Assembly: GCA_008632985.1 (NCBI GenBank)
Contig: QPGO01000126.1
Coordinates: 62,050 to 126,000 of the forward strand
Direction of reading: 5' to 3'
Length of the DNA: 63,951 bases
Source: Psammoneis japonica
Lineage: Eukaryota
The notes beneath the pieces were generated by a model. It did not search any database, was not told the DNA's origin, and saw nothing but the letters and a program-made list of their open reading frames with translations. Every line of letters begins with the position of its first letter. Position 1 is the first letter of the stretch. A program made the translations under genes and the position numbers. Of the stretch, positions 1 to 36,384 are shown piece after piece.

Positions 1-22
1 CACACACACACACACACACACA
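1..22. repeat. (CA)n microsatellite, truncated by the window edge
   Basis: 11 CA units at the window start. Confidence 0.95.
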
Positions 23-530
23 CTGTCACCCTCCCCTGATGAGCAATGCAAAGCTCATCAAGAAAAAAAGAGCACCTCCAAAAGAAAAGAGAGGGCCAGA
101 ATGGCAGAACAAAGAAAAGGACCAAAGAAATGGCCAAGACTTGGCCATTGAACATGACAACAATCAACAACAATGTCCTGTCATCAGTCTTCAACAAAAA
201 ACATCAAAGGCACACAAATCTTTTGGACAAATTGAGTTCTGCATCAAAGAATCATTTCATCAATCCACAAATCATTGACTGCAATGGGACATTCTGGCAA
301 GTCATGCTGTCACCAAAACTCATCCCAAGAGATGGGGCCAAAAAATGGAATCCACCACAACGGATGATGCACGATGCACTGAAAATCAAGCAACAGGCAG
401 CAATCTGCACCTGACAAACTAGTGCTTCTGCTGCCAGTTGTGTCACCTCTGAGAAACACATTGGATGACCAAAATGCATTGTAAAGTTGTGCTCAATGTT
501 GGAAGAACAGTGATGTGTTGCAGGTGAGCA

Positions 531-2310
531 TCACACGGTGTTCAAATCATGGTCATCAAGTGAGATTTCTTGATTGAGGAAGGTTGAATTCTCAACAGCC
601 TCATGTGCTCCTCCTGGCCCTGAGCTGTGGGAATCCTTCCCCTGATCAAAATGTGTGGGGTCATTGTTGGGGATGGTTGACAGGTCGTCACGAGCACCAG
701 GAACAACGCTGCTCGACACCACAACAATGGTCTTGACAGCAAAGGAAAGAGGTGGTGTGGTGGGAGACAACAAGACTTGGGGGGCCTCTTTCAGGGTTGC
801 CCCACTTCCAAGCTAACTGGACAAACAGAGTGCAACACTTGGAGTGCCTCATTGTTGGAAGAAGGTTGACATTTGGTTGGCAGATTTTCAGTGACAAGCA
901 AATCTTGGTCACCAAACAATTCACCACTGGAAGAGTTGGAATGTTTGTCAATCTTGTGCACTTCCACTGCACCATGTTGCTCCCTCCCCTGATCAGAAAA
1001 TGAAGGATCATTGTCAGCAATGATGGATGGGTCCAGAGTGCCATGAAAAGTGCAGTTGGACGTGTGACAACAGCCCTGACTGTGGAGGAAAGAGACTGGG
1101 TGGCAGAAGGCAGCAAGACTCCATGGCCCTCTTTCACATGCTGACTGCCCTGCTGCTGTTGGTCTTGTTCAAACAAGAGAAGGAGCAGCAGCATTGCACA
1201 TCCAAAATCAATGATGGCCAAACCAAAAATCCAAATTTGAATCAAGTTGACAACCAACAAAGCACCGGTGGTGTCCATGAGTGACATGTGGTGGCAGCGC
1301 ACAGGTGGCAAGCAAGTTAGGTGCAACCTTGATGACAGAGGACAGTCCATGACTGGGGTGAACATGGCCATCTTTGCGCGGAACAACAGAATGACCAGAA
1401 ACAAAAAACTTTGCTGGGGTCTTGAGTGGGCAGGCATGGACTTCAGCAGGAAGTGCCGCTAATTTGGCAGGAAGTTTGAGGGGTCCAGCATCAACAACTG
1501 CAGGTGGCTCCCTCTCAGATGCCGTGACAGACACAGTGGACTTGCTGTGCAGTGAAACATCATCCACAGGATCCACCCCAGCATCGACAGCAAGTGCATC
1601 TTGAAAATGAGAATTTTCATTCTTCCCAGCAGTCTTGGCAGCAGGAGCCACATCTTGAACCTCCACAGATGCAACAGACACGACAGAGCCTCCAAGAGGA
1701 AGAATGCTCTTCAGCGCTTTGGCCACAGCTTGCTCGTGCTCTTTTGGACCAGGCAAATGAGTGGCTGAGGCCTTGGCAAGATCTTCGGGGGTGTGAAACC
1801 TGCAGCAAAAGCTGGAGATGAAAAACTTGGGGCAGAAGAGGATTTTGGGAGAGGATTTTGGGTGTGGAGCATCAGAGATGTCATCCCAACATTTGTGCGA
1901 ATCAAAGTCATGACAAAAACAGAGACAGAGTGTTTCAACATGTGCCGCTGTGGTGTCCTGACCATTTGAGATTGTCTTGATCACAGCCTTCTGAAGATTG
2001 GTGCAGTTCAGATGAACTGGAGAAGCTTCAGGGGCTGCTACAAAGAGAGGAGCCTTGTCCATGCAAGTGGTCCAATCCATTTGAGATCGTTGGTCAGCAC
2101 AGCTTTGGGAATGATGAGATCCTGAATGACCCTGTGATGGAGAGTTTCCACAGGATTGGTCTTGAGGCCTGGAGCAGGCATCTCATCTGAATGAAGGTCA
2201 TTCAGGTGACAATGGGCATCGGGCAAGTGATGTTGCCAGTTGAATTCAACCAATGTCGACTCTTGATCTTGGTCAAATCAACGGCAGTTGTGCACTTGTT
2301 GACCATGGCT
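531..2310 (-). pseudogene. Decayed gene of unknown function inside island A
   Basis: Protein-like minus-strand fragments in shifting frames (2038-2253, 1208-2080, 531-773) with no Tyr and excess His/Cys; no family recognised. Confidence 0.45.
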
Positions 2311-2749
2311 GCGTGGGGGAAAAATCAAATTCCTGCACAGAGTGCTGGCATGTGTTTTACAGTGGTCGTGATGATCACAAGTTGAGAGAGAAAAATGGCT
2401 GTGACAATGATGCTGTTTTCAACAGAGAAATGTTGCCAAATCACACCGCAGTGAAAGTTGAACTGCGGTTGCATTGAGGAAGACAAACAGCGCACTGTTG
2501 CTCATAACCGTACAGACTGCTGGTGTCGGGACGATCTAACGGATATCTACTAGAGGACAGATGGTAACCATGTACTCTAGCTACTAGAGAGGAGAAAGAA
2601 AGTGAGCAAAGAAGAGATCACATCATCGGATCTCTCCATGCCATCTGTGCTAGTCTGTTCGACACAAGGGAGTGTACTCCCCGTCTCGAATGTCTGTCAG
2701 TAAGTACAGTAGTAGGCCCTCTCCAGAGTTATTACACAATTGACTTAAT

Positions 2750-3895
2750 TCATTTGTTATTGCGACTACGCTTCCAGGATAGCCATCGTGGAGGACGACG
2801 TTTCGTATGGGTCGATGGGTCTTTTTTAGGGCGCCACGACGCGTTTTTCCCGCGTTTAGAACACACCCGTCTTTCAGTTGAAGGGGATTGTTCTTGGGCG
2901 TTTGCGTTCGTCGATGTAGTCAGTAAATGTGGTTTGGCTTGAATAAAGTAATACAGACAATCAAGATCATTGGCTTTCCCTAACACATCTGCCCACAGTC
3001 CATCTGGAACATAGTTTTCGTTTTCCCTCAACAAGCGCCGTCCGCCCTTGTTCAATTTCATGTAGTATTCGATTTCTGGATGATCCCCGTCCGCAATTAC
3101 TTCCTCCAACGAATAGCTGTAGCGACCAATTTCCTCAGGAGATAGTTCAAGACTTGTGCAGCCACTTATCACGAGCTGCTGCAGTTCAGGGAGCTGCAAT
3201 ATTTCAGGCGGAATGAACCGTAGCTCCTTGCATAGGTACATCGACAATTTGGATAGTTTAGTGAGATTCGAAAGCTCGACCGGCAGAGTGACGAGTCGTC
3301 TGCAATTGCTGAAATTCAAACAAGAAAGACTGGTCATTTCGCCCATCTCTGGAGGTATCTCCTCGAGTTTCCGACAGTTGTTGAGGCTTAGGTTCTCGAT
3401 GTTCTTTAGGGCGGCTATGGTACCAGGCAGTCTTGTTATTTCCTCGCAGTTGCTCAAGTATAGCCCCGTAAGATTCGTCAGTTTACCGATTGATGGTGGA
3501 AGTGATTTCAGCTTGGTGCAGGCGTAGAGACTCAAACACGTTAAGCCCTGCAGGTCCCCAATCTCTCGAGGGAGTTCCTCGAGTCCCTCGCAGCACGAAA
3601 GCGAAAGTCGGTTGAGCTTTTCAAGCTTGCAAATCTCCCTTGGAAGTGTCTTTATTTTCGAGCACCAACTCAGATCGATGCATTTCAGATGTGATAGCAA
3701 CGAAATTTCTGGAGGAAGCGAATGTAAGCAGCAGGAATATGATAAATTAATCTCGACAACGTTGCCATTTTCGGTCTTGAAACGATCAGCCAACTTAGAG
3801 TCACTGTATCCTGCCGCCTTGCAAATCGCAGCAACGGCTTTCTCTTCTTCGTCGCTCAGGCTGAGAAGACTTAGCGGTGCCTCTTGCTGGTCCAT
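2750..3895 (-). CDS. Leucine-rich repeat protein (about 9 x 24-aa plant-R-like LRRs with diatom-type C-terminal cap)
   Basis: Repeated LxxLPxEIxxLxxLxxLxLSxC; C-terminal LNKGGRRLL...LW..VL...LYYF cap; intact 381-aa ORF. Confidence 0.9.
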   Translation of the reverse strand: MDQQEAPLSLLSLSDEEEKAVAAICKAAGYSDSKLADRFKTENGNVVEINLSYSCCLHSLPPEISLLSHLKCIDLSWCSKIKTLPREICKLEKLNRLSLSCCEGLEELPREIGDLQGLTCLSLYACTKLKSLPPSIGKLTNLTGLYLSNCEEITRLPGTIAALKNIENLSLNNCRKLEEIPPEMGEMTSLSCLNFSNCRRLVTLPVELSNLTKLSKLSMYLCKELRFIPPEILQLPELQQLVISGCTSLELSPEEIGRYSYSLEEVIADGDHPEIEYYMKLNKGGRRLLRENENYVPDGLWADVLGKANDLDCLYYFIQAKPHLLTTSTNANAQEQSPSTERRVCSKRGKNASWRPKKDPSTHTKRRPPRWLSWKRSRNNK

Positions 3896-4204
3896 TTCGT
3901 GGGATTGCTCGTCCTGGTGCTATCGTGACAACCGAAAAAGAAAAAATGTGTCAAGGATGATCGATTTCAGTGGCCATCAGAGATGGCCAATCCCGGATCA
4001 GGCTGTGCAGTCATTTTTGTCCGCCTTTCTGCGTGGACATGATGGCAGGGCCGTAGAAAAAGCGTAGCCCCCATACGACAAAAATTGATCGGAGAAATTA
4101 TTATTTCGTAGTCGTGGTTATTCGTGGCGCCTCTTCCGTACAGTAGGTGGTGGTTTGTTCGTTGGTGGCGCTCACGACTCTGACGTGTCGATTACATCAT
4201 ACCT

Positions 4205-4385
4205 CCACGCCACGTACAGTACGCGTACAGTACGGTACCGTAGCTATTCTCTCTCTACCATAGCTATTCTAGCTAGAGCTAGTTAGCTCTACTAGCTATT
4301 AGCTAGAGAGCTCTACTAGTAGAAGCTACTAGCTCTCTAATAGTAGCTAGAGAGAGAGAGAGCACGGTAGGCCTATACTGTACTG
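4205..4385. repeat. TA-rich low-complexity intergenic spacer (GTAC/TAGC/CTAG/AG-rich)
   Basis: acgtacagtacgcgtacagtacggtaccgtagctattct...tagctagagctagttagctctactagct...(AG)n; similar tracts at about 28800-28890, 30240-30305 and 38820-38930. Confidence 0.75.
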
Positions 4386-4832
4386 CTGTAAAGGTAGGGA
4401 TTCGAAATAGTGTCGGTGCTGTACCTGCTAAGTATGCCCAACGGAAAAATGGTTGCTTGTAGAGAATGTGATGTCAATTGTTCTGTTGTTTAGCCTGCCT
4501 CTGCCTTAACCACCACGTAGTACAACTATAGCCATCCACTCTTTACAAAACTTGCTACTCTAGAGTAGTTTACTGCGAGATCCGCATACGACATCCCGCA
4601 GGTCATCTCTAAAGGGTAGAGAGAGGGCACTAAACCGACGACAAACTCTAGAGAGTGTCTCATAAGAGCACAAAATCATAAAACTAAGTTTACTCATGAA
4701 CTCAATGACGTGGCACAAAAGGATGTTCCTACACCCCTCAACATCGTCACGACAAGTTTCGCTGACAGACGAAAACATTCAGAAACTAGACTGAAGCAAG
4801 ATCCACATGAATGCGTCGAGAAGGCCGTCTCT

Positions 4833-6299
4833 CTACGCGGGCGACTGCGAATTGAATTGCGAGTTTGTTGGAACTCCTTTATCTCCTCCGTTCCTCATAT
4901 CGTCAATGTCAGTGCCAGGAGAACCGAGAGAAGTTGTTTTTTGATGACTATCTCCTGAATCGCTGGCGGTAGCGGCTTCACCCCGGTCAACCGTGCCTCC
5001 GACTCCATAGAGGCGGCGATCTCCCCAGCTGCGGGGAAGGAGACGAAGGAAGCAAAGGTCAAACACTTCCGCGAAACTAAAGACCGAGATTCCCAGGAAG
5101 AATCCGAGCAAACCACCAATAGCAGCGAGAAGACCCGAGAAAGAAACCGCTTTTGTCTCGGTAACTTCCTCGCGACGAATGGCCTCGAAATTCATCTGCA
5201 CCACGAGAAGATTCTGGCGAACAAAATCTTCGGTCGAATTAATTATGCCGGCAAGATCATTGAGAAGAAACTGGGAGAGTTGGAGGCCTGAAGTCCGCGT
5301 GCTGTATACAGTCTCCTTGCAAGGAGGATCTGGACAGTCGCATTCAAGATCTTCGAATAAACCAGCGGAACATTCATCCGGAGCTTCAGTCGCAGAAGAA
5401 CCATAATCATCATCGTCGTCGTCACCAACTTCAAACTCTGAAGCGCAGTAAACAAAGCTAAGACTCTTGGGACGATTGTCGCCAAGGGCGCGACAACCGC
5501 ATTGTTCCAAGTGGTAGTCAAAGTAACAGTCCGCTCGGCACGCAGGTTGACTAAATGTCTCTGGAGTTTTGACGCAAGTTGACCACGGCTTTTGTTCTTC
5601 ACGGTCATATTTGGTCACATCCAGAAAAACCGTGTGGGCAAAGCCCGGGCCCAGGTCTGTGAACGGGCGATCAATCGTTATCGAAGTCGTGTTTGGTTCC
5701 GTGACATAAATAAAGACACCCTCCGTTTCAGCACCATCGTAGTAATCGTCACGGTGGATAAAAACGGAAAAGACAAGACCACTCGTCAGACCAGGCCTCG
5801 TGACCTTGGTATCGGTGTGAAACGTCCAGCAGGGTCCAGCGTCAGTGATTGTCTGCTTCCAGTAGTCGGCAGCGTTTAAATCCTCGCCATCAAACTCCGT
5901 AAAGACAACGAACTCATCCAGTTGCTGCGTAATCAGATTGAGCTCTTCATCATTTACGGGGCTCGTAATACCGGTTGCGTTTACCTTGGATGCTTGGAAA
6001 GGGTTCACGTTGCAAACCGTAACGTCCGGAAAGGTGAGAGACTGTGGTGCAATCGTTTGAATCGAAGTGGTTGTGCTGTAGTCCAGATAATTTTGAATCA
6101 CAACAGTCAAGTTCCAAGTCAAGAGACCCAGGCACGTGCAAAACAAAAGGATGAAAAGGGCCCGTTTCCATGCGCGAGCATTCAAGTCGAACACATATTC
6201 AACACCGTGAATGCTCGTCCCTCCCGCCCACTCATGAATGACCTCGGATCTGGTCGCATCCGCCTCACTCGATTCCGGTGTAGAATACTCAGCAGCCAT
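4833..6299 (-). CDS. DEG/ENaC (ASIC/amiloride-sensitive sodium channel) family subunit
   Basis: Pre-TM1 TSIHG motif, TM1, FPDVTVCN, GPCWTF, Cys-rich thumb (C..C...C.C...CPDPPC), TM2 IGGLLGFFLGISVFSFAE with G-x-S filter; intact 488-aa ORF. Confidence 0.92.
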   Translation of the reverse strand: MAAEYSTPESSEADATRSEVIHEWAGGTSIHGVEYVFDLNARAWKRALFILLFCTCLGLLTWNLTVVIQNYLDYSTTTSIQTIAPQSLTFPDVTVCNVNPFQASKVNATGITSPVNDEELNLITQQLDEFVVFTEFDGEDLNAADYWKQTITDAGPCWTFHTDTKVTRPGLTSGLVFSVFIHRDDYYDGAETEGVFIYVTEPNTTSITIDRPFTDLGPGFAHTVFLDVTKYDREEQKPWSTCVKTPETFSQPACRADCYFDYHLEQCGCRALGDNRPKSLSFVYCASEFEVGDDDDDDYGSSATEAPDECSAGLFEDLECDCPDPPCKETVYSTRTSGLQLSQFLLNDLAGIINSTEDFVRQNLLVVQMNFEAIRREEVTETKAVSFSGLLAAIGGLLGFFLGISVFSFAEVFDLCFLRLLPRSWGDRRLYGVGGTVDRGEAATASDSGDSHQKTTSLGSPGTDIDDMRNGGDKGVPTNSQFNSQSPA

Positions 6300-7270
6300 G
6301 GCTGAAGATGATGGACAAAAGTAGAACTATCTGTTTCCACAGGCCACTCTTGTTTTGTGAGTCACTCTGCACAACGCCAACAAAGTAAACACACTTTGTT
6401 GGTCGCGAGCAGAGCCGCAATAATTCAATCGCAGTCCTCCGAATCTGCTCGGGAGCCTCTGTGTTCTGTGTGGGCCGTCGGTGGCGCACTGATGAGTGAG
6501 CACGAGCACTGACTCGAAATCGCGGGTCGTGTCATCATGCTCGTCTCCAGAGTCACAGGCTCCGAAAATGACCATGACCACACCTGCCTGGGGCCACCCA
6601 AAATCATGGACATCACACTGTGATTTGTTTCTTCATCCAAAGCAGTTGTTGTTAAACTTGACACAGAAGCGAGCCATGCCATTGAGGGAGTGGAAAGAAT
6701 CGTCTTGTTCATTTCCATCCAGTCCTCAAGCCCACCACTTTTTTGGCCGGCCGAGCTCATCTTGTCTCCCGCTCTTCGCTGCATTTTGCCACCAGTGTTT
6801 GGCGAGCTGTGTCAAGCAAATGTTTGTGCATGTTTTCTCATCATTGCTTTTGTTTCAACAGAGCAATTGTTTTTCCATTCATTGCAAAGATGCCCCCCAC
6901 CCTTTTTCGCTTCTTGCAGCAAGAGCTCCCCCCAGCTGGCTGATGGAGTGCGACATCTTTCTTGCCGTCATCATGAAAGTTCGCAGTTTGCAGAACACCC
7001 TGATGATGTTTGGTGGCATTTGCACAAAATGTGGTCAGCAACCCCTGGGTCAAAAAGGCAAAAGCTGACATGACAACATGTTGTTTCTGGCTGTTGGCTT
7101 GCACATGTGTGCACTCAATGAGGTTTGTTGCACACCTTTGGTGTGTGGGCCCTCCTGGCTCAATGCAAAATGATGTTTGGTTTGTTCACCCATGACAATG
7201 TCCCAGCTTCATGGCTGCAATGTTGTCTGGGCTGGACACATTTGAGAGCAGCAGCTTTGATCTCAAACAA

Positions 7271-7301
<31 letters not shown>
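7271..7301. repeat. (CT)n microsatellite
   Basis: ctctctctctctctctctgtctctctctctc. Confidence 0.9.
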
Positions 7302-7303
<2 letters not shown>

Positions 7304-10300
7304 ACTGTTTTGAAGTTTGTGCTGCACCAGAGCAACGCGTTGAAAGGATGCTGTTGCTGAGGGCCCAGTTGGCTGCAGAAAAAATCAAAAAGCTCACTCA
7401 GTGCAATCCACGGATCAAGCCACAAAATGTGCTCAAAGCATGCTCTGGTGTTGGGAGCATGTGGGGTGACAACAAGCTGATCAGACAGTGAAGCACTCAA
7501 CAGACTTGTGAAAGTGCAAAGGTCCAGGATTTGCAACCCAACAAGCAAAAATGTTTGTAAAACAAGCCAGCAAGTTTGTGATCTGCTTTGCAAACAGGGG
7601 TTTGAAAACATGTTTGCTGATGCTGTGGCACTGTCAGAGTTCACCAACTGTTTGCAAACACTTTTGTGAACTGTGCAAGGTTTCTTCATTTTAAGCCATG
7701 CAAAGTCTGGCCATGCACCCAATGACAAATTCCCAGGAAACAGGAATTTTGATCACCAATGCATGGTTTGTTTCCGTGTGTCAGTTTTTTGCCATGTTTT
7801 GCTTCAGCCACTCACACTTTGCTGCATCTGCTGCTGACCTTGCTCTTGCTCAAATGAGTGCCAGCACTTCAGCTGCTGCCTCCACCCACAGAAATGGAAA
7901 GAGAAGAGGAAAAGGAACATTTGCTGTGTTGGGTGCCACCACTTGTGCCATGCACCACAATTTCTTTTGTTCTCTGTTGCACAAATTGGTGTTGCTGCTG
8001 CCAGCAGCCCAAGAAACAGCAGATGACATGCAGCAGCAGGCCACCAGCCCAAGTTGGAAGGCTGGCAGCAACTCTCCAGGCAAGTGCAGTTCAAGGTTGG
8101 CTCATTGGGCTTGAGCAAACAGGCCCTGGGAGAACCATCCAAGAATGGCTTTAAAACACACTCATGTTTGCAATGTTGATGGGTGTCCCAATCCATTCCT
8201 CAAGCAGCTCTCCAAGAATGAAGCAGCCACAGCTGGGTTGCAACAAAATTGCAGGATCATTTGAAACAGCGCTGTCACAAGGGGATGCTGAGTCCAAGCC
8301 TGTTCTTGAGAAGGCCAAGCAAAAAAGGTGAGATTGGGTGCACATTGTGTGTTGCATGTTGGCTTCAGTCATTGTTGCTGAACAGGCACTGGCAGCATCA
8401 TTTTGTCTTGCTCACAAGTGCTTCTGCTGTTTGTCATCTTTCACATTTTGGGAAGCACTTGCTTTCCAACACTTTGTTGGAGGCAGCAACAGTGGCAATG
8501 CAAAGCCACCAGCAAAAAGGTGAAACATTGCAATCAACCTTAAAGGGTTGGCTTGCTTTTGCTCCAAGGCAGAAGACCCTGACAAAGCAAGCCCGGTTCT
8601 GCACACACAGAAAGCAAAGGATTTCAAAAAGCACATGCACAGAAAAGTGCTTCATTGAAATGATTTTCAAGGTGGTGACTCAGATGCATCTGCAGTCACT
8701 TCCTGCTTGTTGGGACAGGAGCATGTCAGCTGAGGTGAAGTTTGCCATGTTTGAGAAATTTTTCAACCTTGTCTGGCAGCAGTGCCAGCACAGCAGCTGA
8801 AAAGAGTGACGGCATTGGGCATTTCCTGAAAGAGTGATTGAAGCAAAGAGCAGCAGCAGCAGCAGCAGCAGCAGCCAAGAGTGACAAGAAGAAAGCCAGC
8901 AGTGCCACTGGCAGCCCAGTTCCATCACAAAAACCACCACCACCCGCCGCCCAAAAAGTCAAACTTTGGGGACTTCAGTGGATGGCAGACAAACAGTCAC
9001 TGCCACGTCATGTCATTCGTTGTGAATTTAAAGTTGACAAGTTTGTCAATCTGGGAGGACTTTAATTGAAGCAGTCAAAGTCCACTGTGTGCTGTTGTTC
9101 TTTCCACTGGTGGAGATGAGTTTGCATGTCTTCTCAGCTGACCAGACCCCTCTGAGCAGAACCGCTGCCTCGCGGACTTTTTCACCCACGTCATCCCACC
9201 AAAAGGTGATGGATGAACAACCACCAATGACCAGAACACACAAAATGAACCCACCACATGCATCCCGGCTGCACGGGGGGTGTGAGACATCTTTTGGTCC
9301 AACTGCCCCTCTGATTGCCAACCCCCTGCCTTGGGCTTCTTAACGCCAATCAGAAAAACAGACACCACATGTGGTGTCAAAAAATTCTTGTTGTGGTCTG
9401 TAAAGTGCCTTGCGTGCACTAAATGACCACACAAATGAATTCATCCCACTCAAAAACACACATTTTCACCCTTTGTTTGTGTTCAAGTGATGTCTGGTTG
9501 TGCTGCAGTGGCCTTTGAAAGTGTGGTGTTTTTGCTCAAATTTCCCATGCAAACTGCCTCCAACATGGCGTCACCTCCAGCATCTCCCCTGTTGCCAGAA
9601 TGTTCCCTCCAATGATCCACCTCTCCCATGGACGTGCATGGAAAAGAGATGGGCATTAGCGAATTGCTTGCTGTTGGAGACAACATGCCTGAATCACCTG
9701 GTGCTTTTAGAGAAGAATTTCTGAAAATTTCAGGCAGTTCCGTTGGTGATGCAAATGAGGCCACAGTTGTCCTGCCACCAACTAAAAAGTCCAGGAATTG
9801 CTTTTCCCACACAAAGAAGAAGCTGCTGGGTGTTGTGATTCTCTTTGTGGAGACCCGGTGCCAAGAATTGTGTTCCAGCTTGCTGTTTGATGCAGTGCAA
9901 ACGGAAGATGCTGCACAGTGGTGGCATGTCCACGGAAAACCAACAACAACCAGTTTGCAGTGAAGTGGGGTCAGTCATCAATGTTTCCTGGAAGCATGCA
10001 AAAAGAACATTTGCACCACAAGCTTGAAAGTGACAACCAAACAAAAGAGCAGCTGAAGAAAGCAAGGCAGAGGAGAGAGTGCTAGTTTGAAATGAGCAAA
10101 TGCAATGCAATGGTGTTGCAGCAGTTTGTTGTTGAATCAATGTGATGAGAACCACTGCAGTTCCATGCTGATTTGAACAACACTTGTGCCTGCAAGTGGA
10201 TCATGTTGATGAATTTAACAATTGATCCATGCAGCAACAAGTGGTGTCAACATCAACAATGTGTTCCACCTCATGATTCTGGTTGCTCAGATTCTTCTTC

Positions 10301-11239
10301 TTCCTCCTCCCCGTTGCACCGCATGGAGCCATTCATTGCTCATTCCCATTCACAGCATCGCCTGAATTGCCATTCATTCCACCAATTGTGGCAGCAGCAG
10401 CACCAATCTCTTCATCATTTGCACTCTCCACACTGCTGTTTTTGACATGATGATTTGAGGAGGACAGCCCGTCATCTCACTCTGTTGCACACCACTGCTG
10501 CTTGCAGTGTTGTCACCTTGAGGAGGCATTGGATCACACCACAAGCAAATTTTCCATTGTCCCATGGCCAACTGCCACTCACCTTGTGCCTTGGCACATG
10601 AAATGGTCAGAGTTCATTTTTGGTTTTGTGTCAATTTTTGTTTTTCTTCACTCATGAGTTTCATTTCGACAACAATGGGGCAGCGCACTTTTCAAAAATC
10701 TGGTTCCTGCACTGATCTGCACAAATTGGACACATGTGGAATGTGCAGCAAATTTTGCAGCAATTGATTTGAATTCACTCCAAGTGCACAAACATTGTGG
10801 CAACAATGCCACGACATCAGCGATGGCCGCCGCACATGACAACAACAGCTGACGGGGGGTTCTGGCACAACGGGCTCCAGCCCCAGGTGGGACTTTTTTG
10901 TGACATTGGGCCCGCAGAATTCTGCATGCAAGCTCCACAGCAAAATTGTCAAGCAATGAACACATGGGTGATTGCCAACAGAAAAAGAGGCAATTTTGCA
11001 AACACATCTCCTCCTCCACACTTGAAGCACATTCTTTGCAGCATGCCCGGGTGTGTTCTTCAGACATTGAAGAACACACCCAGTGCATCTTTGTTTTGTC
11101 ACAAATGTGGTGGACAACAGAAAGCCTTTGGCTTTGCAAAACAGGCAGTGTGGAACAATTTTTTATGACAGAACACACAGAAAGGTGTGTGAGAAACATG
11201 CGGCAGATGACAAAAAACAATTGTCACAGTTTGGCAGTG

Positions 11240-11457
11240 CGAGGTCCCACCCAGAGCTGGAACGCATCACACCAAGATGACAACTGACATGACAACAAAT
11301 GCAGCAAAAATGTTGGATGACAATGATGGAGTTGTTTTGGGAGCTGCTTGAGTGATTGGTGATGGTTGATTTTTGACACGCACAACTTGGTGCTGAAAAC
11401 ACGTGCATTTTTTTGCCGCGGTGGGAGACGTGTTCTCCAGGTCCAGGTGGGACCTCG
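11240..11457. mobile_element. Tc1/mariner-like MITE (218 bp)
   Basis: 22-bp TIRs cgaggtcccacccagagctgga / tccaggtccaggtgggacctcg (3 mismatches); flanked by TG (11238-39) and TA (11458-59), consistent with a TA TSD whose left copy mutated; TA|CGAGG terminus is mariner-like. Confidence 0.75.
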
Positions 11458-12998
11458 TACAGAGGTGCACGCCATTGATGCGCACTTGGCTAATTTTTTC
11501 TATGAATGAAAAATGCACGTGGGCAGCAACAAGTTTGCTTTTTAGGGGACGCTGAAACAGGACACAAAACATCAGATTTGCAATTTGTCAATTTGAAAAT
11601 GGGTCACTCGGCCACAATGCCAACATGGCAAATGGAAACCTTGCTCAGGTCTTGTTTGTCAAGAAGTGGATTGACAGGATTCATCACAAATTTCTGATGG
11701 CGACTCCAAGGCACCACAAAAAAGATCCGCAATTTCGCCCCTTGCTTCAGGTGCAATTCACGCTTCAAAGTTCTCATCTTCTCTGCTGCAGCACCATGCT
11801 GGTGGGATGTTGTTGCCTGAATTGCATCGCAGCCATCTTCAACCCAAAAGATCACATCAATCAAAGGCTCACTTTCATTCCTCGAGCAAAGCATGTGTTG
11901 TTTGGCTTGGTCTTTTCGGACATGCTCACTCATGTTTGACACTCTGACTGTGGTCCGTTTTGCTCCAAGCGCAATCCCACCGACAACTGGCTGGCAGTTC
12001 TTCTTCTCATTCTTTGTTGTGTTTGGTGGCTTTTTGTTTTTGCTCTTGCGGACTTGATCTTTCACAAAGTGAGCCGGGCCCATCGAAAACTTCAGACAAA
12101 GATGCGACTTGAAAAGATTTCCTGGTTGCCAGCGTTGTCTTTGTCAAGAACTTCATGCCAAGACATCCTGAGGTGCTTCTCAGCAAGAAGCTCTTCTGCA
12201 TGATCTGATTTCAGGGTTGTCTTGAATCTCTCCATGTCTTGATCATGTGGGACGATGCCGACAAGCACACTCGATGGCGCACTCTTGCTAAAAGCGAGCT
12301 GGTGCCTGCCCTCTGCAAGTTCTTTGACTGCACTTGCATCAAGGTTTGGGGCCGTTTCCATGGCCGCATTGAACTTTGTCTTGTTGAACATCGCAACATC
12401 GCGAAAAGAACCTCCCACGATCCTCAATCAACGTGATGTTTCATCATCACAGAGAGTTTTCAGCTTGACAAGGTGTTTCTTGGCCACAAGCAGTTGACAT
12501 CCAGTCCAAAGACAACCGCAAACCAATGCACCCGGTTTGGGAGGGGGTCCAAATTCCAAAAAGCTCATTCCATCGGATGATGCCCAGTCTTTGGTGAAGT
12601 TGTTTCCACCCCAATGTTGGCTGTCGTCAGAGGCCGCCATGATGAATCTAACACCACGAAGCTCACTGGCATCTCCACATGATCCAAAGTGGTCTCCTGG
12701 GTCCACAATGCAGGGTGCACCTTGCCTCTTCAAACTGGGAATTTTGCTTCTTTTCTCAGTGTTGGGCATGCAGCAAACCGCTGCATTCACATCCTTGACC
12801 TCCTTGTTCTCCAAGACTGGAACAAATTTGTAAAAAACATCAACCAACCCAGAGGACCTTCGGATGGTGTGCACGACGGGTTCTTCATGATCCATGATGA
12901 GTTGCTGCAACAAATGAAGTGCAGTTGTGGTCTTTCTAATTCCAGTTTTCCCGACACCACACACTTTGTGTCCCTTTGACCCTTCAACCACCGGACTT

Positions 12999-13028
12999 GA
13001 GCAAATCTCCACGGGTGGAGATTTGTTC
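12999..13028. repeat. 30-bp near-perfect palindrome (copy 1)
   Basis: gagcaaatctccacgggtggagatttgttc. Confidence 0.9.
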
Positions 13029-13284
13029 CCTCATGTCACAAATGTGGCGAAACAAGCAATTTCAGACATGCACAACATTTTGTTCGCGCGATTTTGTTTT
13101 GGAACGCGCATTCGCCAAAAATCTGGGGGAACCCTTTTTGTAATTTAGAAAGTTCAATGTCAACTTTTAACACCGGGCTTTTTGCAAGCTTCATCTGTGG
13201 ACAGAGAGGAACTAAATCTCAACCCACAACAATGCAGGTTGTCATGAATTGCTGTCACAAATGGAGCAATTGTGCCACACCCTT

Positions 13285-13316
13285 GGAGCAAATCTCCACC
13301 GGTGGAGATTTGCTCC
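13285..13316. repeat. 32-bp perfect palindrome (copy 2)
   Basis: ggagcaaatctccacc|ggtggagatttgctcc. Confidence 0.95.
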
Positions 13317-16300
13317 CAACACAAGCAAATGCATGTGGCACACTTTACGCAGATTCTACGCTGTATGACATTTTTATGCTGTGTGCATTGTGCCATCATA
13401 AAAGTGCATGGAATGGTTCCAAAATGCTTCATCCTCAGGGCACACAACAACTTTAATCAGACGGCCAGGGCTCTGAAGTTCGGGAACATGGTCTTGGCAC
13501 ATTTTCACATCCGTCTCTCCGATTTGCACTGGCCATGAATGCAGAACTGCACTGCGAATTTCAATCGCTGCTGCAAGGTTGGGCATTTCGACATCGCCTT
13601 CTGTGGGGACTTTCTTGGCCTTGCGTCTCCACGCATCCTTGTAAATTTCGAACAAACTGACCAAAATGGAGTGCACCTGTCCCAAATGAATCGATGGACT
13701 TAGTTGCAAAAACTCCAAACCCTTGAGGACAGTGCAGATGGATGCAGTGTCGGCGAAGGGTTCCAACCACAACAATGCGGGCCGCAACCTCTTCAAAATC
13801 TCTTTGTCAGTCACACCCTCTGCAGTTGCAGAAGTCTTGAGAGAGACCAGTGTTGCAGTGTCTCCTGTGGCATCCACTGCTGCATCCATTGCATCAGGTT
13901 CTCTGGTTTGGCTTTCTTCTTTGCATCCATCATCTTGTTGCATTGTCAAGCACCAAGCACAAGGGAGAGCAATTTATGAACGGAAGTTGCCGTGTGCCGG
14001 CACTGCTCAGCGTTCAGGAGATTGGAGGTCCAAGCAGATGCAGACAGTTTTACATTGCGTGGAAATCTACGCAATGATTGCTTGGTGCATTTCAACGTAA
14101 TTTCTCGCGCAACCTCCGACCTCTGTGAAGAGCTCAGACATCCATGATGACTTTGGCATCACACTTGCAAATCACAAGAAGCACCAATCATGCTGTTTGT
14201 TTTGGATTTGAGCATTGTCATGACAACACCAATGCTGGCATTGACAAGCTTCTTGCAGAGACATTCCACCATGCTTCCCAAAGGCTGGATCTTGCAGATG
14301 AGTTGCTCAACTCTCCATGGCATTCTCTGACTGTGCTGCTGCACTTGGAGTTTCATGATCTGTTGGGATGGAGAGGAGGACAAAACTTGCATTGTGCATG
14401 CAATGGCAACAAGGTTGGGCCATCTGCAGTGGGGCAAACCCCTTTCCTGCTGGTGTCAAGGTCATGGATTGAGCAAGGAGCCTTGCAAAGTGACCCAGTT
14501 CTTGTGGAAAATGTTTGCATGAGCTGCACAAGATTGTGGCACCCCCCTGGTGAAAGATGTGCCCAAGATCAAACCTCAAGTTGACATTGATGATGCTGGC
14601 ATTGCATCTGACCAAGGATTGCTCAAGTCAGTCACCTGCATGAATCACCCATTGAAATTGTGTCAAACATGGCCAACAGCACTCATCATCAGGGCGCAGA
14701 CTCTGGGCTGGCATGTGGAGCAGATTCTTTGAGCTGGAGGCAGCTCCAGACAACACCAGAATTCTCATGTGACAATGGCTCAGTGTGCAAGACACTGCAT
14801 GGTGTTTGGGCCTCTTGCCAAGAGAATGATGCACAATTGTTTGCAAAGTTGCGCCCTTGCAATTGTTGATGCCAACAAAGTGACAAAGGGCCCTCACCTC
14901 CCGCGCAAGGAAGTGGAAGCAGCTGAGCTGTCTGGCAGATGGCAAGATGTGCCATGACTGAGCCACTCTTGAGCTCCAGCACAGATTGACACTGAGAAGA
15001 TTTTTTCTGCTCTTTTGGCAAGAATGATCCCAACAAGAAGAAGTGGGTTGCTTCTGTGTTGGACCTTTGCATCATTTGCGTGCTCTGTGGCCCTGAGTTG
15101 GCACAAGCGAGCAGTGGCAGATGCAAAGGTGGAGTGCATCAAGAAGCTCCGCATGTCACTTCACAAGTGTGAGCACAACCAGAAAAAAGCAGAGTCAAAG
15201 AAGTGAGAGGCTGTCATGGCTCTGAATGTGCTGGGGTGCTGGGGAGTGCATTAAATGAGAAGAAACCCAAAGTGGAGTGAGAAGGGCAATGGCCAGTGTT
15301 GTGCATGAGCCTCCCTTGGAGGAGCGTCATGTGGGCAAGTGAAGCAAGACTTGTTTGCATTGTTTGGTGGCACTTGCAGCAAGATTCTGTCATCAGATGA
15401 AGAAGAAAGGTTTGGGTTCTGCATGAAAAGAAGACTCCTTGCCGAAGGAAGATGCGCTGCAAGCTGAGAAAGAATTTGTCCAAGGTCCTCTCAAGAGCTG
15501 GCGCCAACATGTTGTGCCATGGCACAAGGAGTTGTGCCCTGGTGACTCAAAGCTGCCATTCACACCTGACACCATTGCTGACTTGATGCCCCTCAATGTT
15601 GAAGTCTTGAACAAAAACTTGGAAAACAACTGCAAGGGTCAAAAGTGCTTTTGGGTTTCCCCCATTGATGGCACCAAGCTGCTCCTGCAAACAACTCGGT
15701 GATCTCAGTGCTGAGAGCCATGCTGAGTGAGTCAACACAAAGCTGATGTTGACAGAGGGCAACAACTGCCTTCTCAACAACAAAGTTGGAATGCTTCTTT
15801 CTTTGAACATGAATGAGCAGCTCATGCTGTGCACACACGCTGCACTCGCGAAGTGCTCGAGGAGGCATGCATTGCGGCCATTGCTTTTTTGAATGACAAA
15901 AAGGCAACCTTGAGTGAGCAACTGGCCAGAGAATGAGTCTGTGGTCAAAGCACAATTTCTTGTTGTGAGCACATCTCTGAGTGACCCAAATTCCCAAAAT
16001 TTTTGCCTGCGGCACTTTCATCCTGTGGCGCTGGTGATGCAAAGGGCACTTCTTTGTGAGTGGCTCATGAGCCATTCTGAAAGAAGTTCATGAGCTCTTT
16101 TGAGAGTTTGCAAACCTCCAGTTTGTTTGTCTCTCCTTGTTGAGCTGAAGTTTGTAAACTGTTTGTTTGGAAAAATTGGTGAATTGAAGCCCTTGCAAAG
16201 GTTCCTTTTGGTGAAGCTGAAGTTTGCAGAGATGACGTGGCAGCAGAGGGGCGAGGCAGGACCGAGAGTGTGCCAAACCCCGCACCATGCACGCATCGCC

Positions 16301-16987
16301 CCAAGCAAGATCCACTGGCACTGCATTCTGAAACACACATGGACCATTGAAAGATCCAATGGGCACCCCCAGCGAGCACCAGTTTCCGTTTTTCGTCGAT
16401 CCGCAGAATGTTGCTCGAAAGACCAGTTGCCAGATGCAGCAGCAGATGGCAAAACAGCGCAACAACTGTGTTCTCCACATCCATTCCCCTCGCTCAAAAC
16501 AAAACCCAAAGTCCAATTTTAAGTGCTGCTGCGCTTCCACCCTGCAACTCCGGCAACAAGCTGACCCACACTCCCAGTGCACCAGGTGCGGCAGGAGCAC
16601 ATGACCCTGCTTGTTGTTTGCGAGCTCGAATTTGCACAGACATGCTCCAGAGCGCATCTGTGCATTCACGTAGATTTTGTGCCAGTCGCATCGTAGAGGG
16701 ATGTTGTTCGCCTGCACCAACGAACTCTTTCTCGTACACAAAATATCACCCACGCCTGCCGGATGGGTTGGAGGCACATTTTCCTGGCACACACACGTAG
16801 AATTTAACGCAGCTGCACAGATGGTCTCTGGAGACCATCTGTGCAGGCGACAGTGCAAGCAGGGATGACAATTGTCCAAGATCGGCATCACCCTCGGGTG
16901 ATGCCGTGCCAAACTAGCTTGCGATGGTGCGCGTTCCCCTTGTTCAGAATCATCCTGCAACAAAAAGAGTGACAGCGCACACTCAAC

Positions 16988-17482
16988 ATGCCCAAGTTTC
17001 TGACAAATGAAAAAATCTTCTCCATCGGGGACAAGTTCAAGATCAAGGACGAAAAAGAAAATGATGTCGACCAGGTGATTGGAAAAGTCGCATCCTTTGG
17101 CGACCAGCTCTCGTTTCAGGACATGGATGGGAATCAACTCTTTTTTGTCAAAGAGAAGCCCGTCAACCTCTTGAAGGTGCACGAAGTTTACAACAAGGGA
17201 GACGAAAAATCTGGCGACTTGTGCCTTGGCCTCAAGAAGAAGCTCACCTTCTCCAAGCCCAAGTTTGAAATCGAAGCTCCCGGTGGTGCCAAGTGCATTG
17301 TTGATGGTGGAATTGTCCAACACGATTTTACAATTGGCAGGGATGGTGTGGTCGTAGCCACGATCAGCAAGAAGTTCTTCGCAATGAGTGATCGCTGTGG
17401 AGCAGACGTCTTGGATGAAGAAGATCCCGCTTCGATTCTGGTCATTTGCATTGCTCTCGACCAGGCTTTGCATGACAAGTAA
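16988..17482 (+). CDS. LURP-one-related / Tubby C-2 (YxjI-like) protein; ORF open but probably mutated
   Basis: KIFSIGDKFKIKDE...GKVASFGDQLSFQDMDGN...HDFTI.RDG..VATISKKFF..SD.CG.DV...ED..SILVICIALD matches the bacterial-type LURP-one pattern; several expected Tyr positions carry Cys/His. Confidence 0.8.
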   Translation: MPKFLTNEKIFSIGDKFKIKDEKENDVDQVIGKVASFGDQLSFQDMDGNQLFFVKEKPVNLLKVHEVYNKGDEKSGDLCLGLKKKLTFSKPKFEIEAPGGAKCIVDGGIVQHDFTIGRDGVVVATISKKFFAMSDRCGADVLDEEDPASILVICIALDQALHDK

Positions 17483-18148
17483 TTAAAGTGATGATTGTCG
17501 TTGCGTGTGCTGATCTTGCACCAGCGACGACAACTGTCGGTTGGTTTTCCACAGCAGCAGTTAAAAAAAAGATAACTGCAAAAGTGTCTTGGCTGTTCTG
17601 CCAAGAACGCAGGCTCAACATCATGACCTCAGGCATCTACAGTCATCAAGTGACAAAACATAGTCTGTTTTGCACTGCTTTCCAGACCCATTCGTGTGAC
17701 TCGAGTGTCACATCCTGTTCCCCAGCAGATCTGCTACGAGCACAAGTTCCTCGCCAGACGTTGAAGAAGCTGCAACTGACTGAGCAACTTCTCCATCTTT
17801 TCCTGCTCCTCTACGTCTTCTTTGACCATCATTCCAACAGCCCAATCATTAAAAATTAGGGCCCTAAGTTGATACAATGAGCTTTGTAGCTTTCTTCTCT
17901 ACCGGTGCCGGCACGTGCCGGCACGTCTCGGACCTGTGCCATCTTGTGACCGGAGAAAACGGGGATCATGGCTGGGCGCACGTGCTCTATTTTGGTCCGA
18001 CCGTCGTAGGGTAACGGTTACACATGTAGAAACGTGGTATCCAGCTACGTGTGGTCGTCATCATTTGCTTGTGATCGTGCGTTGCGCTTGGTGCCGGTCA
18101 CAATGATGAGCGCACCTGTGTTTTTGGCGACAAACAAATAGGTCAACC

Positions 18149-24100: not shown

Positions 24101-25531
24101 GAGACTGGCCCAAAGGCTAGAGATATCCCAAGTGCAACATCGCCTGCTGCAGTCAATGGCGTCACTGGTGACTCCCGAGGATAGCGAATCGTCGTCGCAG
24201 ACGAAGGAACTACATGCTCTTATCACACGAGCTATGGATACTGTGGCGCATGTCGAACAAGAGAAAGCCGCGGTTGTCGATGGTCATAGCGAGGCTATGG
24301 CGCGACTCGGCAATCTCAACGAGCACGTAGACCACCTGGCGTCGGACTTGACAGCGCAAACACAGAACTGGTTGATAACTATGAAGCAAAGCTTGAATTA
24401 ATTAGAAGCGACAGGGATGATTTACGGTGGAAGGTTTCCCAACGAGATGATATTATACAGAAGAGCCATCTACTCGTTCAGTCCATGGCGTCACGCTTGT
24501 CGCAATGCGAAGAGCAGTTGCAATCTCAGCAAAATCAAATGGGCAACGACTCGACAAGTGCGCTCGAAGAGATGACGAACCTTAGAAGCGAGACTTCCTC
24601 TCTTTTCTCTGTACATTGTCAGGCTATGACAAAGGTCTGCAAACTGGAAGAGCTGATGCATCAGCTGGAGTCTGATGTTTCGAAACAAGCCTCCTCTGCC
24701 AGTAGCCACTGCCACGAAAGACTAGACACGCTTATCAGGGAGCGACATGAATTGCAAGTACAGTTCTCTCGATCAATTTCAGTTGCTCGATCGCAACATC
24801 AATTGCTGCAGTCCCTGGCGTCGAGCATATCAGCCAAAGACGAAGAATTGGAATCGGCTCGTTCGCGTGAGCAAGACGCAATCAATGAAGGCGCCAAGCA
24901 TCTACGCAAATGCTTGAGTCTCGAAGAGGAACTTGGTGCGACGCGTCAGGATCAAAACTCTCTCATGGTGGAAATACGACAGCGCGAAGAAAAAGAAATC
25001 GAACTTCGGACTAACTTAGATTTGTGTAAGCAAGAGCGAGATGCGATAGTCTCAACGAAGGCACAGCTCGAGAATGGCAACGAGGAACTGATGGCGCAGA
25101 TTGTAGAACTGGAACAGGAAATTGAATCACGAGACGCAGAGGCTGTTTCGCTTCATGCGCATATCGAAAGTCTTCAGGAAAAGGCAGTAGCCGGTAGAAA
25201 TCTCAATTCAGTGGTTGAACACCCCGAAAGCGTGCCGGTCGAGCAGAGTAATGGTACACACGAGCAGGTTGAACATCTAGAGAGCTGGCAACAAGACATT
25301 TCTCAGGTGGGCGACAGCTTTGAGCTCGACCTGGCCTTGACCGATGCGTTTGCGTTGGAAGACCCGGACGAAAAGGTTGTGGCCTTGGCGAATGCGCTTC
25401 AACGGTCCGAGCTGTCTCGGGCGGCAGCCATTGACAAGCTGCGCAAAGAACGTTCGGCGAATGCGGATAGTATCCGCCGTCTGGGCGAATCCATGAAGCG
25501 CTTCTATGCTACGCTTAGCGCAAACTCGTAG
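18149..25531 (+). CDS. Giant (about 2450 aa) acidic-repeat plus coiled-coil protein, golgin/tether-like
   Basis: ORFs 18149-18595, 18717-24401 and 24485-25531 are joined by coding-looking bridges (ETEDWGEHDLDGLDD; NYEAKLELIRSDRDDL) across apparent small frameshifts; about 15 WG(D/E)DDL.GLDDLD motifs, then long helical repeats. Confidence 0.8.
18840..19960 (+). repeat. Coding tandem repeat, about 220-bp unit with about 441-bp alternating higher-order structure
   Basis: WG(D/E)DDLAGL codons recur at about 18848, 19070, 19293, 19512, 19734; gaacgactcgaaaacgaggtagagaag recurs. Confidence 0.85.
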
Positions 25532-35148: not shown

Positions 35149-35529
35149 GGTGAGCCTGATGCCAATGAACTCAAATTCAAAATGAGCTTTTCTAGCTATC
35201 CAGTCACCCAGCCACGCACGTTGCAACCGCTACTCAATGTTTACAGAGCGCAATTTGGAATTTTGCCGCCACTTCACACACACGACCCATCGCGGCGGGT
35301 CGGAAAATTTCAAAGGCATTATGACCATGTTTTTCTTCCAAATTGTCTAATTAAAATATTAATTTAAATACTTACATTTATCTATTTGTCTCATACCACA
35401 AGCTTCAACGGAAAGCATTTTTGTCTTACGAGCGATGTGCAGACCACCTACCGGTACGCACGCCTCGCGAGCGCGCCGTGCAAGCGACAACCCCCCAAAA
35501 AGATGGCCAAAAGACTCTACTGGCATGAT

Positions 35530-36330: not shown

Positions 36331-36384
36331 TTCTCACAAACATCTAGTTTATGCTGTAGTTGATTTTTCACCAATCATTCTCTA

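Follow-up and report, generated by a model that had tools for sequence, protein, structure and literature searches.

TpA-specific hypermutation of DNA was first described in 2026, and so far in one alga unrelated to diatoms, the chlorarachniophyte Bigelowiella natans, in which integrated viral DNA is the target (Mettrop et al., bioRxiv 10.64898/2026.01.13.699255). According to the portions of that preprint drawn on here, 231 of the 302 nuclear point mutations in mutation-accumulation lines fell in two integrated, silent viral regions, and 230 of these 231 were A-to-G or T-to-C changes, all at TpA, at approximately 6e-7 per site per generation, a rate about 1000 times the background, with GC-to-AT changes near background. 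The same portions report 124 genomic clusters of kilobase windows depleted in TpA and enriched in CpA+TpG, and the authors propose an ADAT2-like adenine deamination. The present analysis deals with a 63,951-bp stretch from the diatom Psammoneis japonica (positions 62,050 to 126,000 of contig QPGO01000126.1, assembly GCA_008632985.1), hereafter the window, in whose coordinates all positions are given. It holds five islands that have lost almost all of their TA and most of their CG dinucleotides, and at several island edges the TA loss extends, as a fringe, into DNA that keeps its CG.

Other systems that leave dinucleotide footprints are also relevant to this locus. The repeat-induced point mutation (RIP) of fungi converts C to T, chiefly in CpA, with new TpA as the result, according to the parts of two sources that were available (PMC2621366, PMC3318451). 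In the diatom Phaeodactylum, the CG methylation described in the available part of PMC9998398 lies on regions rich in transposable elements (TEs) which are marked by H3K27me3 and H3K9me2/3, and not on genes. ADAR hyperediting, as summarized in the B. natans preprint (10.64898/2026.01.13.699255), is an A-to-I change in double-stranded RNA which prefers a 5' U/T neighbour. For diatoms, the full-text literature searched, the scope of which excludes most subscription journals, contained no account of islands depleted in TA, of RIP-like mutation or of hypermutation at TpA, and the B. natans preprint was the only relevant result.

The islands were defined by a 500-bp profile together with a two-state segmentation, in which TA and CG were each treated on their own. 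The TA-poor segments are 1-2504, 6422-17479, 35562-36287, 41898-43644 and 56790-61007 (islands 1 to 5), and the CG-poor segments are 1-2446, 6564-16235, 35486-36428, 42014-43672 and 57250-60340, respectively. Island 1 (seven TA and 30 CG) is cut by the start of the window, and its two boundaries are offset by only 58 bp, with no long fringe. Island 2 is an 11-kb TA-poor domain (53 TA and 233 CG), island 3 measures 0.7 kb, with TA and CG borders that coincide within about 100 bp, and island 5 is a TA-poor domain of 4.2 kb; in islands 2 and 5 the CG-poor part is restricted to the interior of the domain.

The window has a G+C content of 48% and overall observed/expected ratios (O/E) of 0.40 for TA, 0.80 for CG and about 1.34 for CA/TG. 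The first-pass annotation of this DNA had described island cores without either dinucleotide, a description that the counts support, given that the cores (16,109 bp) hold 69 TA (O/E 0.06) and 236 CG (O/E 0.25), with CA at 1.74 and TG at 1.76, in comparison with 1544 TA (0.56), 2437 CG (1.01), CA at 1.14 and TG at 1.18 in the 41,261 bp outside. The base composition is equal inside the cores and outside (G+C 0.48 in both), and the O/E values of the four pyrimidine-purine steps add up to 3.81 in the islands and 3.89 outside, as expected if both CG and TA became CA/TG by transitions and nothing else changed. The gain is nearly equal for CA (1803 in the cores) and TG (1711), and the asymmetry per 500 bp is mostly within +/-0.2, with no sustained sign. 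This lack of any lasting strand bias points to a process that acts on both strands of the DNA, and speaks against the editing of a single transcript.

The island sequence is complex and not of the microsatellite type. Apart from short palindromes, terminal repeats and a single match of 34 bp, a search for similarity between islands, by blastn and by words recoded as purines and pyrimidines, returned nothing, so the islands, dissimilar even in the recoded alphabet, are not copies of one another. Within island 2, the CG O/E ranges from 0.19 to 0.54 while TA is constant at 0.05-0.07. The 81 TA that remain in the TA-poor segments are preceded by A in 5% of cases (26% outside) and followed by T in 9% (25% outside), and most are found in TTA or TAA, with ATA and TAT almost gone. 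These contexts may reflect a flanking preference of the mutator, which is only a lead, some of these TA lying in young inserts.

A profile of the borders at 100-200-bp resolution had been recommended, and within the window, to which it was confined, it gives a step for TA with a gradient of CG inside it, the offsets themselves not being significant over the nine borders. In 200-bp bins, TA rises from 0-1 per bin to the background within one bin, and CG rises in stages. On the right side of island 5, for example, the CG O/E climbs through 0.14, 0.4, 0.7 and 1.5 between 59000 and 61000, and TA stays at 0-0.26. When all the borders are aligned on the TA boundary, TA goes from 0.03 to 1.22 in one bin, and CG, as a fraction of its level outside, is 0.96 in the final 100 bp before the boundary, 0.53-0.56 between 200 and 500 bp inside it, 0.27-0.44 between 600 and 1300 bp and 0.10-0.17 at greater depth. 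When the alignment is made on the CG boundary, TA remains at 0.42-0.92 of the background for some 900 bp outside. An alignment on a fitted boundary necessarily makes the feature so aligned look sharper; both alignments nonetheless agree. A sharply bounded, TA-free domain thus encloses a graded, CG-poor interior. The distance from the TA boundaries to the start or stop codons of the adjacent open reading frames (ORFs) is 47-330 bp.

By segmentation, the TA boundary is further out at six of the nine borders (by 58, 142, 1244, 116, 460 and 667 bp) and the CG boundary at three (by 76, 141 and 28 bp), which is not significant, either by a sign test (p = 0.51) or by a Wilcoxon test (p = 0.13). The 141-bp reverse offset is an AT-rich, naturally CG-poor stretch (GC 0.35; apparent CG-poor overhang 36300-36400), and not a real CG-only fringe. 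The tally is of four clear fringes (142-1244 bp), one borderline case and four coincident borders, the offsets at these last five being no more than about 140 bp; the earlier proposal that TA loss reaches beyond CG loss at island edges holds at the four borders with a clear fringe, and is not significant as a general rule within this one window. At the rates seen outside the islands, the four long fringes (2513 bp in all) should hold 94 TA and 148 CG, and the core rate would give them 37 CG; they hold 19 TA and 133 CG.

Each fringe was compared with all equally long sliding windows outside the islands, by counting those that hold as few TA. The left fringe of island 2 (6422-6563, 142 bp) has no TA and 12 CG, and is equalled by 250 of 40,041 outside windows (0.6%). 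The right fringe of the same island (16236-17479, 1244 bp), which includes a small repeated insert at 16525-16875 and a gene of the LOR family, has 11 TA (O/E 0.15) and 59 CG (O/E 0.72), and no equal among 34,531. The left fringe of island 5 (56790-57249; three TA and 21 CG), not listed by the first-pass annotation, and the right fringe of the island (60341-61007; five TA and 41 CG) also have no equal, among 38,451 and 37,416 windows, respectively. The borderline case is the left fringe of island 4 (41898-42013, 116 bp), with no TA and 15 CG, located 47 bp upstream of a gene at 41123-41851 on the reverse strand.

The annotation had quoted five intervals as poor in TA and rich in CG, and three of these stand out from the rest of the window, namely 6430-6800 (one TA and 19 CG; none of 38,896 outside windows is equally TA-poor), 16900-17500 (six TA and 27 CG; none of 37,746) and 60300-61000 (five TA and 41 CG; none of 37,246). 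The other two, 41900-42010 (no TA and 15 CG; 999 of 40,196, or 2.5%) and 43670-43740 (no TA and 12 CG; 4004 of 40,396, or 9.9%), are within chance. The example string that it gave is present, at approximately 6513-6533.

The direction of the change can be read in two genes at the island margins. One of these is the LURP-one-related (LOR) gene (PF04525, Pfam E = 5.8e-16), located at 16973-17479 on the forward strand; its frame is open, it holds three TA (O/E 0.09) and 22 CG (O/E 0.76), and the 581 bp which follow directly after its stop codon have a TA O/E of 0.56. Homologs were taken from a search with 1170 matches, by selecting the first 100 of the 150 listed and keeping the 90 with a length of 140-230 aa. 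Tyrosine makes up 0.6% of the LOR protein of the window, in comparison with a mean of 3.9% in these 90 homologs, and cysteine makes up 2.4%, in comparison with 0.7%. The columns that hold tyrosine in 93%, 72% and 37% of the homologs are TGT, CAC and TGC in the window, the last of these being tyrosine in the nearest homolog; one tyrosine is kept, and two Tyr/Phe columns are now Asp and Phe. In place of the tyrosine codons (TAY) conserved in these homologs, the LOR gene has TGY or CAY, which shows the direction of the change. A frame of 464 codons (461 aa from its first ATG) is open antisense to this gene.

The other gene is a frameshifted pseudogene at 59835-60940 on the reverse strand, which spans the CG boundary of island 5 at 60340 and belongs to a conserved diatom protein family without a Pfam entry. 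The frame at 59835-60665 (reverse strand) has 11 database homologs, the best of them 81% identical and none with a Pfam family. A tblastn search with the two best homologs gave two pieces, one for residues 124-376 (60593-59835, frame -2) and one for residues 29-123 (60880-60596, frame -3), and, given their different frames, the gene is frameshifted near 60594 in the assembled sequence. The C-terminal block aligns 255 residues with the nearest homolog, 205 of them identical. Fifteen of the 50 differences are of the TA-to-TG/CA type (five in the fringe part, above 60340, and ten in the core part) and 13 are of the CG-to-TG/CA type (four and nine, respectively), and the others are 11 further transitions, eight transversions and three multi-step changes.

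The codons of this pseudogene separate the two kinds of loss. The ten tyrosines of the homolog have become seven Cys and two His, with one Tyr kept, so that tyrosine codons are lost in three of three cases in the fringe part and in six of seven in the core part. Arginine is kept at five of six positions in the fringe part (CGT, CGG and three AGA), with one now Cys, and in the core part three arginines have become His, two have become Cys and one is kept (AGA). CGN codons are thus lost in one of three cases outside the CG boundary and in five of five inside, the replacements being TGY or CAC. A consensus was built from eight of the 11 homologs (three fragments of 189-221 aa were dropped), using the columns in which at least six of the eight agree. 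The window matches 131 of these 161 columns, and in it four of five Tyr columns are now Cys and four of nine Arg columns are now Cys or His. In the tblastn alignment of the N-terminal piece, two of five tyrosines are kept, two are Cys and one is Phe, which shows that the loss of TA is less complete over the final 300 bp.

The change from TA to TG or CA needs A-to-G or T-to-C and is impossible by cytosine deamination, so the TA loss is a process of its own. The annotation had argued that it is not a by-product of the deamination of 5-methylcytosine, and this argument is upheld by the tyrosine codons that have become TGY or CAY in both genes, a change that cytosine deamination cannot make.

Reads provide a check on the sequence and on its copy number. 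Word-based contigs of a public sequencing run (X1), assembled over positions 1-20000 of the window, have a depth of 60-70 inside island 2, close to the 60 of the flanks, and differ from the window at 0-3 positions per 0.8-5.4 kb, so that the island sequence is real. As the run may come from the sample of the assembly itself, however, an assembly error is excluded better than a miscall specific to the chemistry. Most of island 2 is single copy, at this depth of 60-70. Island 1 has a read depth approximately 10-30 times that of the flanks, which makes it a repeated element. The contigs also break at a (CT)n microsatellite at 7268-7300, inside island 2.

Small inserts within the islands have terminal inverted repeats or palindromes, occur in hundreds of copies by read depth and interrupt the X1 contigs; these traits suggest inserts of the type of miniature inverted-repeat transposable elements (MITEs). 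In island 2, these are 10714-11372 (depth 38,858; TA O/E 0.02), 12999-13317, with 32-bp terminal repeats (depth 4029 over 13004-13291), and 16525-16875 (depth 3100, with a contig break), and in island 5 a small repeat with terminal inverted repeats or palindromes lies at 57027-57286. The residual TA of island 2 clusters in the zone 12999-17000, and the inserts at 12999-13317 and 16525-16875 keep TA (O/E 0.17-0.33), which suggests that their insertion came later than most of the erasure. Compared with the window, copies of the repeats elsewhere in the genome show 182 transitions and 48 transversions, among them adjacent TG-versus-CA differences at 1012/1013 and 11232/11233. Such double differences are what remains when a single ancestral CG or TA has decayed on one strand in one copy and, independently, on the other strand in another copy.

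The reading favoured here, at a probability of roughly 0.68, is a TpA-to-TpG/CpA hypermutation joined by a slower decay of CpG, both acting on silent DNA. Since the TA loss reaches beyond the CG loss, two separate mutation processes are probably at work. The islands would be silent, non-coding or decaying DNA between active genes, composed of old repeats, MITE-like inserts and pseudogenes. The first process would turn 5'-TA-3' into TG or CA on either strand, through A to G or T to C; it would be fast and near completion (TA O/E 0.06), would stop in a step at 47-330 bp from the neighbouring genes, and would most likely be of the same kind as the hypermutation of B. natans, for which adenine deamination of the ADAT2 type was proposed. 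The second would be the usual decay to TG/CA of CG that is presumably methylated; it would be much slower, would have run to completion only where the interior is oldest or most methylated, and would fade over about 1 kb towards the edges. CA/TG would be doubled because both processes produce them, and G+C would stay at 48% because one process raises it and the other lowers it. The composition, the step as opposed to the gradient, the direction of the change, its presence on both strands and the reality of the sequence are direct observations, from which we infer the enzyme, the methylation, the chromatin state and the timing.

The fringe would then mark the periphery of the domain without TA, in which the slow process is unfinished or never acted, either through the later silencing of that DNA or because CG beside active promoters stays unmethylated. 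The offset may thus be one of speed, with TA loss saturating first in DNA silenced later, which is favoured by the graded CG profile and by the CG-type changes already present in the fringe. It may also be one of reach, with the TA process covering promoter-proximal DNA that stays unmethylated, which is favoured by the CG-rich blocks almost without TA that adjoin gene starts (41801-42000 and 60801-61000). The fringes 6422-6563, 41898-42013 and 56790-57249 sit just upstream of the starts of neighbouring genes, with 123 bp between the first of them and the start codon of the sodium-channel gene, and the two longest fringes are genes themselves. Speed and reach may both hold.

The same signature occurs a second time, in a metagenome contig. 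Among 80 metagenome loci that encode relatives of the ATP sulfurylase of the window, 24 are at least 3 kb long, and one of these (L058, 11.2 kb, with a protein 82% identical) has stretches poor in TA and rich in CA/TG, an island being called where a 500-bp stretch has a TA O/E of no more than 0.15 and a CA+TG value of 1.4 or above. As this contig shares the neighbourhood of ATP sulfurylase and kinase with the window, it comes from a related diatom. Its islands are at 251-1250 (TA O/E 0.05-0.11, CG 0.08-0.96, with one 250-bp margin of TA 0.05 and CG 0.96) and at 4751-5250 (TA 0.15-0.31, CG 0.19-0.24, CA+TG 1.8-2.1), and, as these positions within the contig (1-11208) differ from those in the window, the islands are lineage-specific and not conserved. 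In a pair of diverged segments of this contig, CA versus TG is the commonest adjacent double difference (13 cases). On the evidence of its composition, this unrelated assembly lends independent support to the signature being real.

A number of points weigh against this reading as a whole. A long fringe is present at only four of the nine borders, and the Wilcoxon result (p = 0.13) provides no general rule in this window. In the pseudogene, 22 of the 50 differences are of neither the TA nor the CG type, and the CG-type changes are similarly frequent per codon in the fringe part (four in about 90) and in the core part (nine in about 168); given such changes, CG decay has reached the fringe as well, and the boundary at 60340 marks one position along a gradient. 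The nearest homologs of the pseudogene may be either paralogs or orthologs, and the lineage that changed is identified by the consensus and not by a rooted tree. Run X1 is probably from the assembly's own sample, and so provides no independent confirmation. Under the threshold given above, 23 of the 24 related metagenome loci of at least 3 kb have no such island, and the segment pair of L058 is noisy, with 82 transitions against 79 transversions and only 13 CA/TG doubles. Lastly, both mechanisms are read from footprints only.

Several of these observations would also follow from a single deaminase of dual specificity, or a single targeting machinery, that hits the A of TpA and, far less efficiently, the C of CpG in silent DNA, with the fringe as a zone of low dose. 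Every island core is poor in both dinucleotides and no island lacks CG alone, both changes give the same end products, and a graded dose would yield a saturated step of TA with a gradient of CG inside it; in addition, the ADAT2 of amphioxus and Trypanosoma acts on both A and C in DNA, according to the available part of the B. natans preprint (10.64898/2026.01.13.699255). However, B. natans, the only measured example, is TpA-specific in the data seen (230 A-to-G or T-to-C changes and one other, with GC-to-AT near background), and inside island 2 the retention of CG varies almost threefold with TA unchanged. The decay of CpG in methylated repeats needs no special enzyme, and diatoms methylate such regions, as far as described in PMC9998398. 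A single process is thus considered unlikely. The arrival of the islands as foreign or mobile DNA, already poor in TA and CG and with nothing mutated in place, is very unlikely; although the islands consist in part of repeated elements, recognisable homologs are missing for most of their DNA and the B. natans targets are integrated viruses (10.64898/2026.01.13.699255, in the part available), the boundaries of TA and CG should then coincide, and at four borders they do not. Furthermore, Tyr-to-Cys/His and Arg-to-Cys/His changes are found at conserved columns in two genes whose homologs are ordinary cellular ones, repeat copies differ by TG-versus-CA pairs, and scans of viral contigs for an island ORF and for the nearest homolog of the pseudogene came back empty.

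Selection against TA and CG, on account of some function of the islands as a structural chromatin element or in nuclease avoidance, is also highly improbable. The strong avoidance of a word does yield a near-total absence of a dinucleotide over kilobases, but here conserved residues of two proteins have been sacrificed and one gene is frameshifted, the islands are mutually dissimilar even when coded as purines and pyrimidines, and young inserts inside them still carry TA. There is, finally, the question of whether the islands could be an artefact of sequencing or assembly, with heavily modified bases of silent DNA misread, for instance a modified C as T, or a modified A or T as another base. 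Modified DNA can give systematic miscalls in some long-read assemblies, and run X1 may be the assembly's own data; against this, the word-based contigs reproduce the islands at a depth of 60-70 with 0-3 differences per 0.8-5.4 kb, an unrelated metagenome assembly has the same signature in a related diatom, and the changes are in frame, with clean Tyr-to-Cys/His codons beside unaffected flanks. An artefact is therefore scarcely credible, and the hypermutation of TpA with a separate decay of CpG is retained as the preferred reading.

The content of the islands is for the most part without recognisable proteins. A Pfam scan of the 69 island ORFs of at least 100 aa (all islands, 41 of the ORFs in island 2) found no family except LOR and no viral or transposon protein domain, and reading two of the six frames of island 2 through their stops, with X at each stop, again gave only LOR in Pfam. 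A protein atlas search with the 262-aa ORF at 41933-42718 returned no usable match, and pattern scans of viral contigs with P0273 and P0275 (the island ORF and the nearest homolog of the pseudogene) found nothing. Long open frames of 100-460 codons without homologs abound on both strands of the islands, e.g., 16091-17482, 1211-2182 and 41933-42718, all on the reverse strand. Frames stay open, and false ORFs abound, because a change of TA to TG or CA never creates a stop codon, and among the CG changes only CGA to TGA can.

Outside the islands, the window consists of long, intron-free ORFs with ordinary eukaryotic domains, which include LRR, the amiloride-sensitive channel, ATP sulfurylase, kinases, peroxidase and DUF6824. 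The ATP sulfurylase is 85-91% identical to proteins from diatom transcriptomes and genomes, whose source names include Thalassiosira, Pseudictyota, Coscinodiscus, Cyclophora and Pseudo-nitzschia, and on these similarities the window appears to be gene-dense diatom nuclear DNA. The LRR gene at 2750-3895 has its 3' end 246 bp from the border of island 1, and the sodium-channel (ASC) gene occupies 4833-6299 on the reverse strand. Island 3 lies exactly between two tandem kinase paralogs, at 33790-35226 and 36385-37971 (both on the reverse strand), which are 2601 bp apart, with 71-74% DNA identity. An ORF of 1894 aa at 18717-24401 (forward strand), whose protein has no Pfam family, carries about 12 tandem copies over 18171-20660, spaced by 189-252 bp (mostly around 222 bp), which encode the acidic motif WGDDDL..GLDDLD. 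A bacterial-type, NAD-dependent DNA ligase, an unusual type of enzyme for a eukaryotic nucleus, lies at 45161-47778 on the reverse strand, split over two overlapping ORFs in different frames, with the adenylation and OB domains at 46027-47778 and the HhH and BRCT domains at 45161-46096; the split may be a frameshift or a short intron. An ORF with a CUE domain contains a 27-bp tandem repeat in 3-4 copies at 62296-62403.

A saturated footprint of TpA loss in a diatom suggests that the process occurs widely in marine algae, and that its power far exceeds what was seen in the first case described. The erasure covers about a third of the 64-kb window and reaches cellular genes at the edges of the islands. 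The offset between the boundaries shows the TA process to be independent of the decay of CG, and offers a built-in clock, in which fast TA loss runs against slow CG loss, as well as a place in which to look for the factor that sets the boundary. For genome annotation, TA-free DNA loses two of the three stop codons on both strands, which results in long false ORFs that are possibly mis-annotated as genes. It may further be proposed, tentatively and at somewhat less than even odds, that diatoms, and with them at least two distant branches of the SAR group (stramenopiles, alveolates and rhizarians), possess a DNA-editing defence that erases TpA over whole chromatin domains by adenine deamination, independently of cytosine methylation. 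Such an erasure would be sharp at active genes, would silence by missense without creating stops and would be faster than the decay of CpG, such that the ratio of TA to CG would give the age of silencing.

Among the known systems, ADAR hyperediting resembles the footprint in its A-to-G change with a preference for a 5' U/T and in its targeting of repeat-derived nucleic acid. It differs in that it edits RNA, so that a footprint in the genome would presuppose re-integration after reverse transcription, with a strand bias in each molecule. A version of this, in which hyperediting is fixed by retro-copying, was considered and rejected, as there is no strand bias, the DNA is single copy, and the footprint takes in promoters and intergenic DNA, is continuous with the flanking promoters and ends at neighbouring genes and not at the ends of inserts.

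Fungal RIP shares with the islands the defence-like, context-specific transitions in silent or repeated DNA, the dinucleotide footprint and the spill into neighbouring genes, given that RIP leaks into adjacent single-copy DNA. On the other hand, RIP makes TpA and lowers G+C, whereas here TpA is destroyed, A to G is needed and G+C is unchanged; in place of a raised TpA and a lowered G+C, TpA is depleted, with a G+C of 0.48 inside and outside. As for the duplication which triggers RIP, most of island 2 is at single-copy depth (60-70), with only its short inserts repeated, and island 1 is repeated some 10-30-fold.

The decay of methylated CpG explains the loss of CG in the interior with its gain of TG/CA, as well as the CG kept in genes and promoter-proximal DNA, and the depletion of CpG is indeed matched by a gain of TpG/CpA, with Arg CGN codons turned into TGY or CAC. 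The pattern of Phaeodactylum, as far as it is described in PMC9998398, fits the CG that is kept next to genes here, and by this analogy the CG loss of the islands may reflect cytosine methylation. This decay cannot remove TA, and therefore accounts for one of the two footprints.

The islands also differ in part from the hypermutation of B. natans, which is a rhizarian, whereas the islands are found in a diatom, a stramenopile. The erasure of TA is near total here (O/E 0.06), in comparison with 0.45 in the B. natans viral region, in the available part of the preprint, and that part does not report the loss of CG that accompanies the loss of TA here. The islands have no viral or transposon domain in Pfam, in the frames scanned, and affect cellular-type genes at their margins. 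The targets in B. natans are discrete regions of foreign, silent DNA; those of the window are likewise discrete, hold small repeats and one pseudogene, have no Pfam family except LOR and gave no match in the viral contigs. A rise of C-to-T, which does not accompany the B. natans mutations, is present here (core CG O/E 0.25, and 13 CG-type differences in the pseudogene) and is attributed to the second process. The B. natans mutations were observed de novo, and the change from TpA to TpG/CpA is here read from the sequence, as a footprint and not as observed mutation events. In both cases, nevertheless, TpA becomes TpG and CpA on both strands (CA 1803 and TG 1711 in the cores), the action is regional and hits single-copy and repeated DNA alike, and it leaves kilobase clusters, depleted in TpA and enriched in CpA+TpG, in which many of the affected sequences are without annotation.

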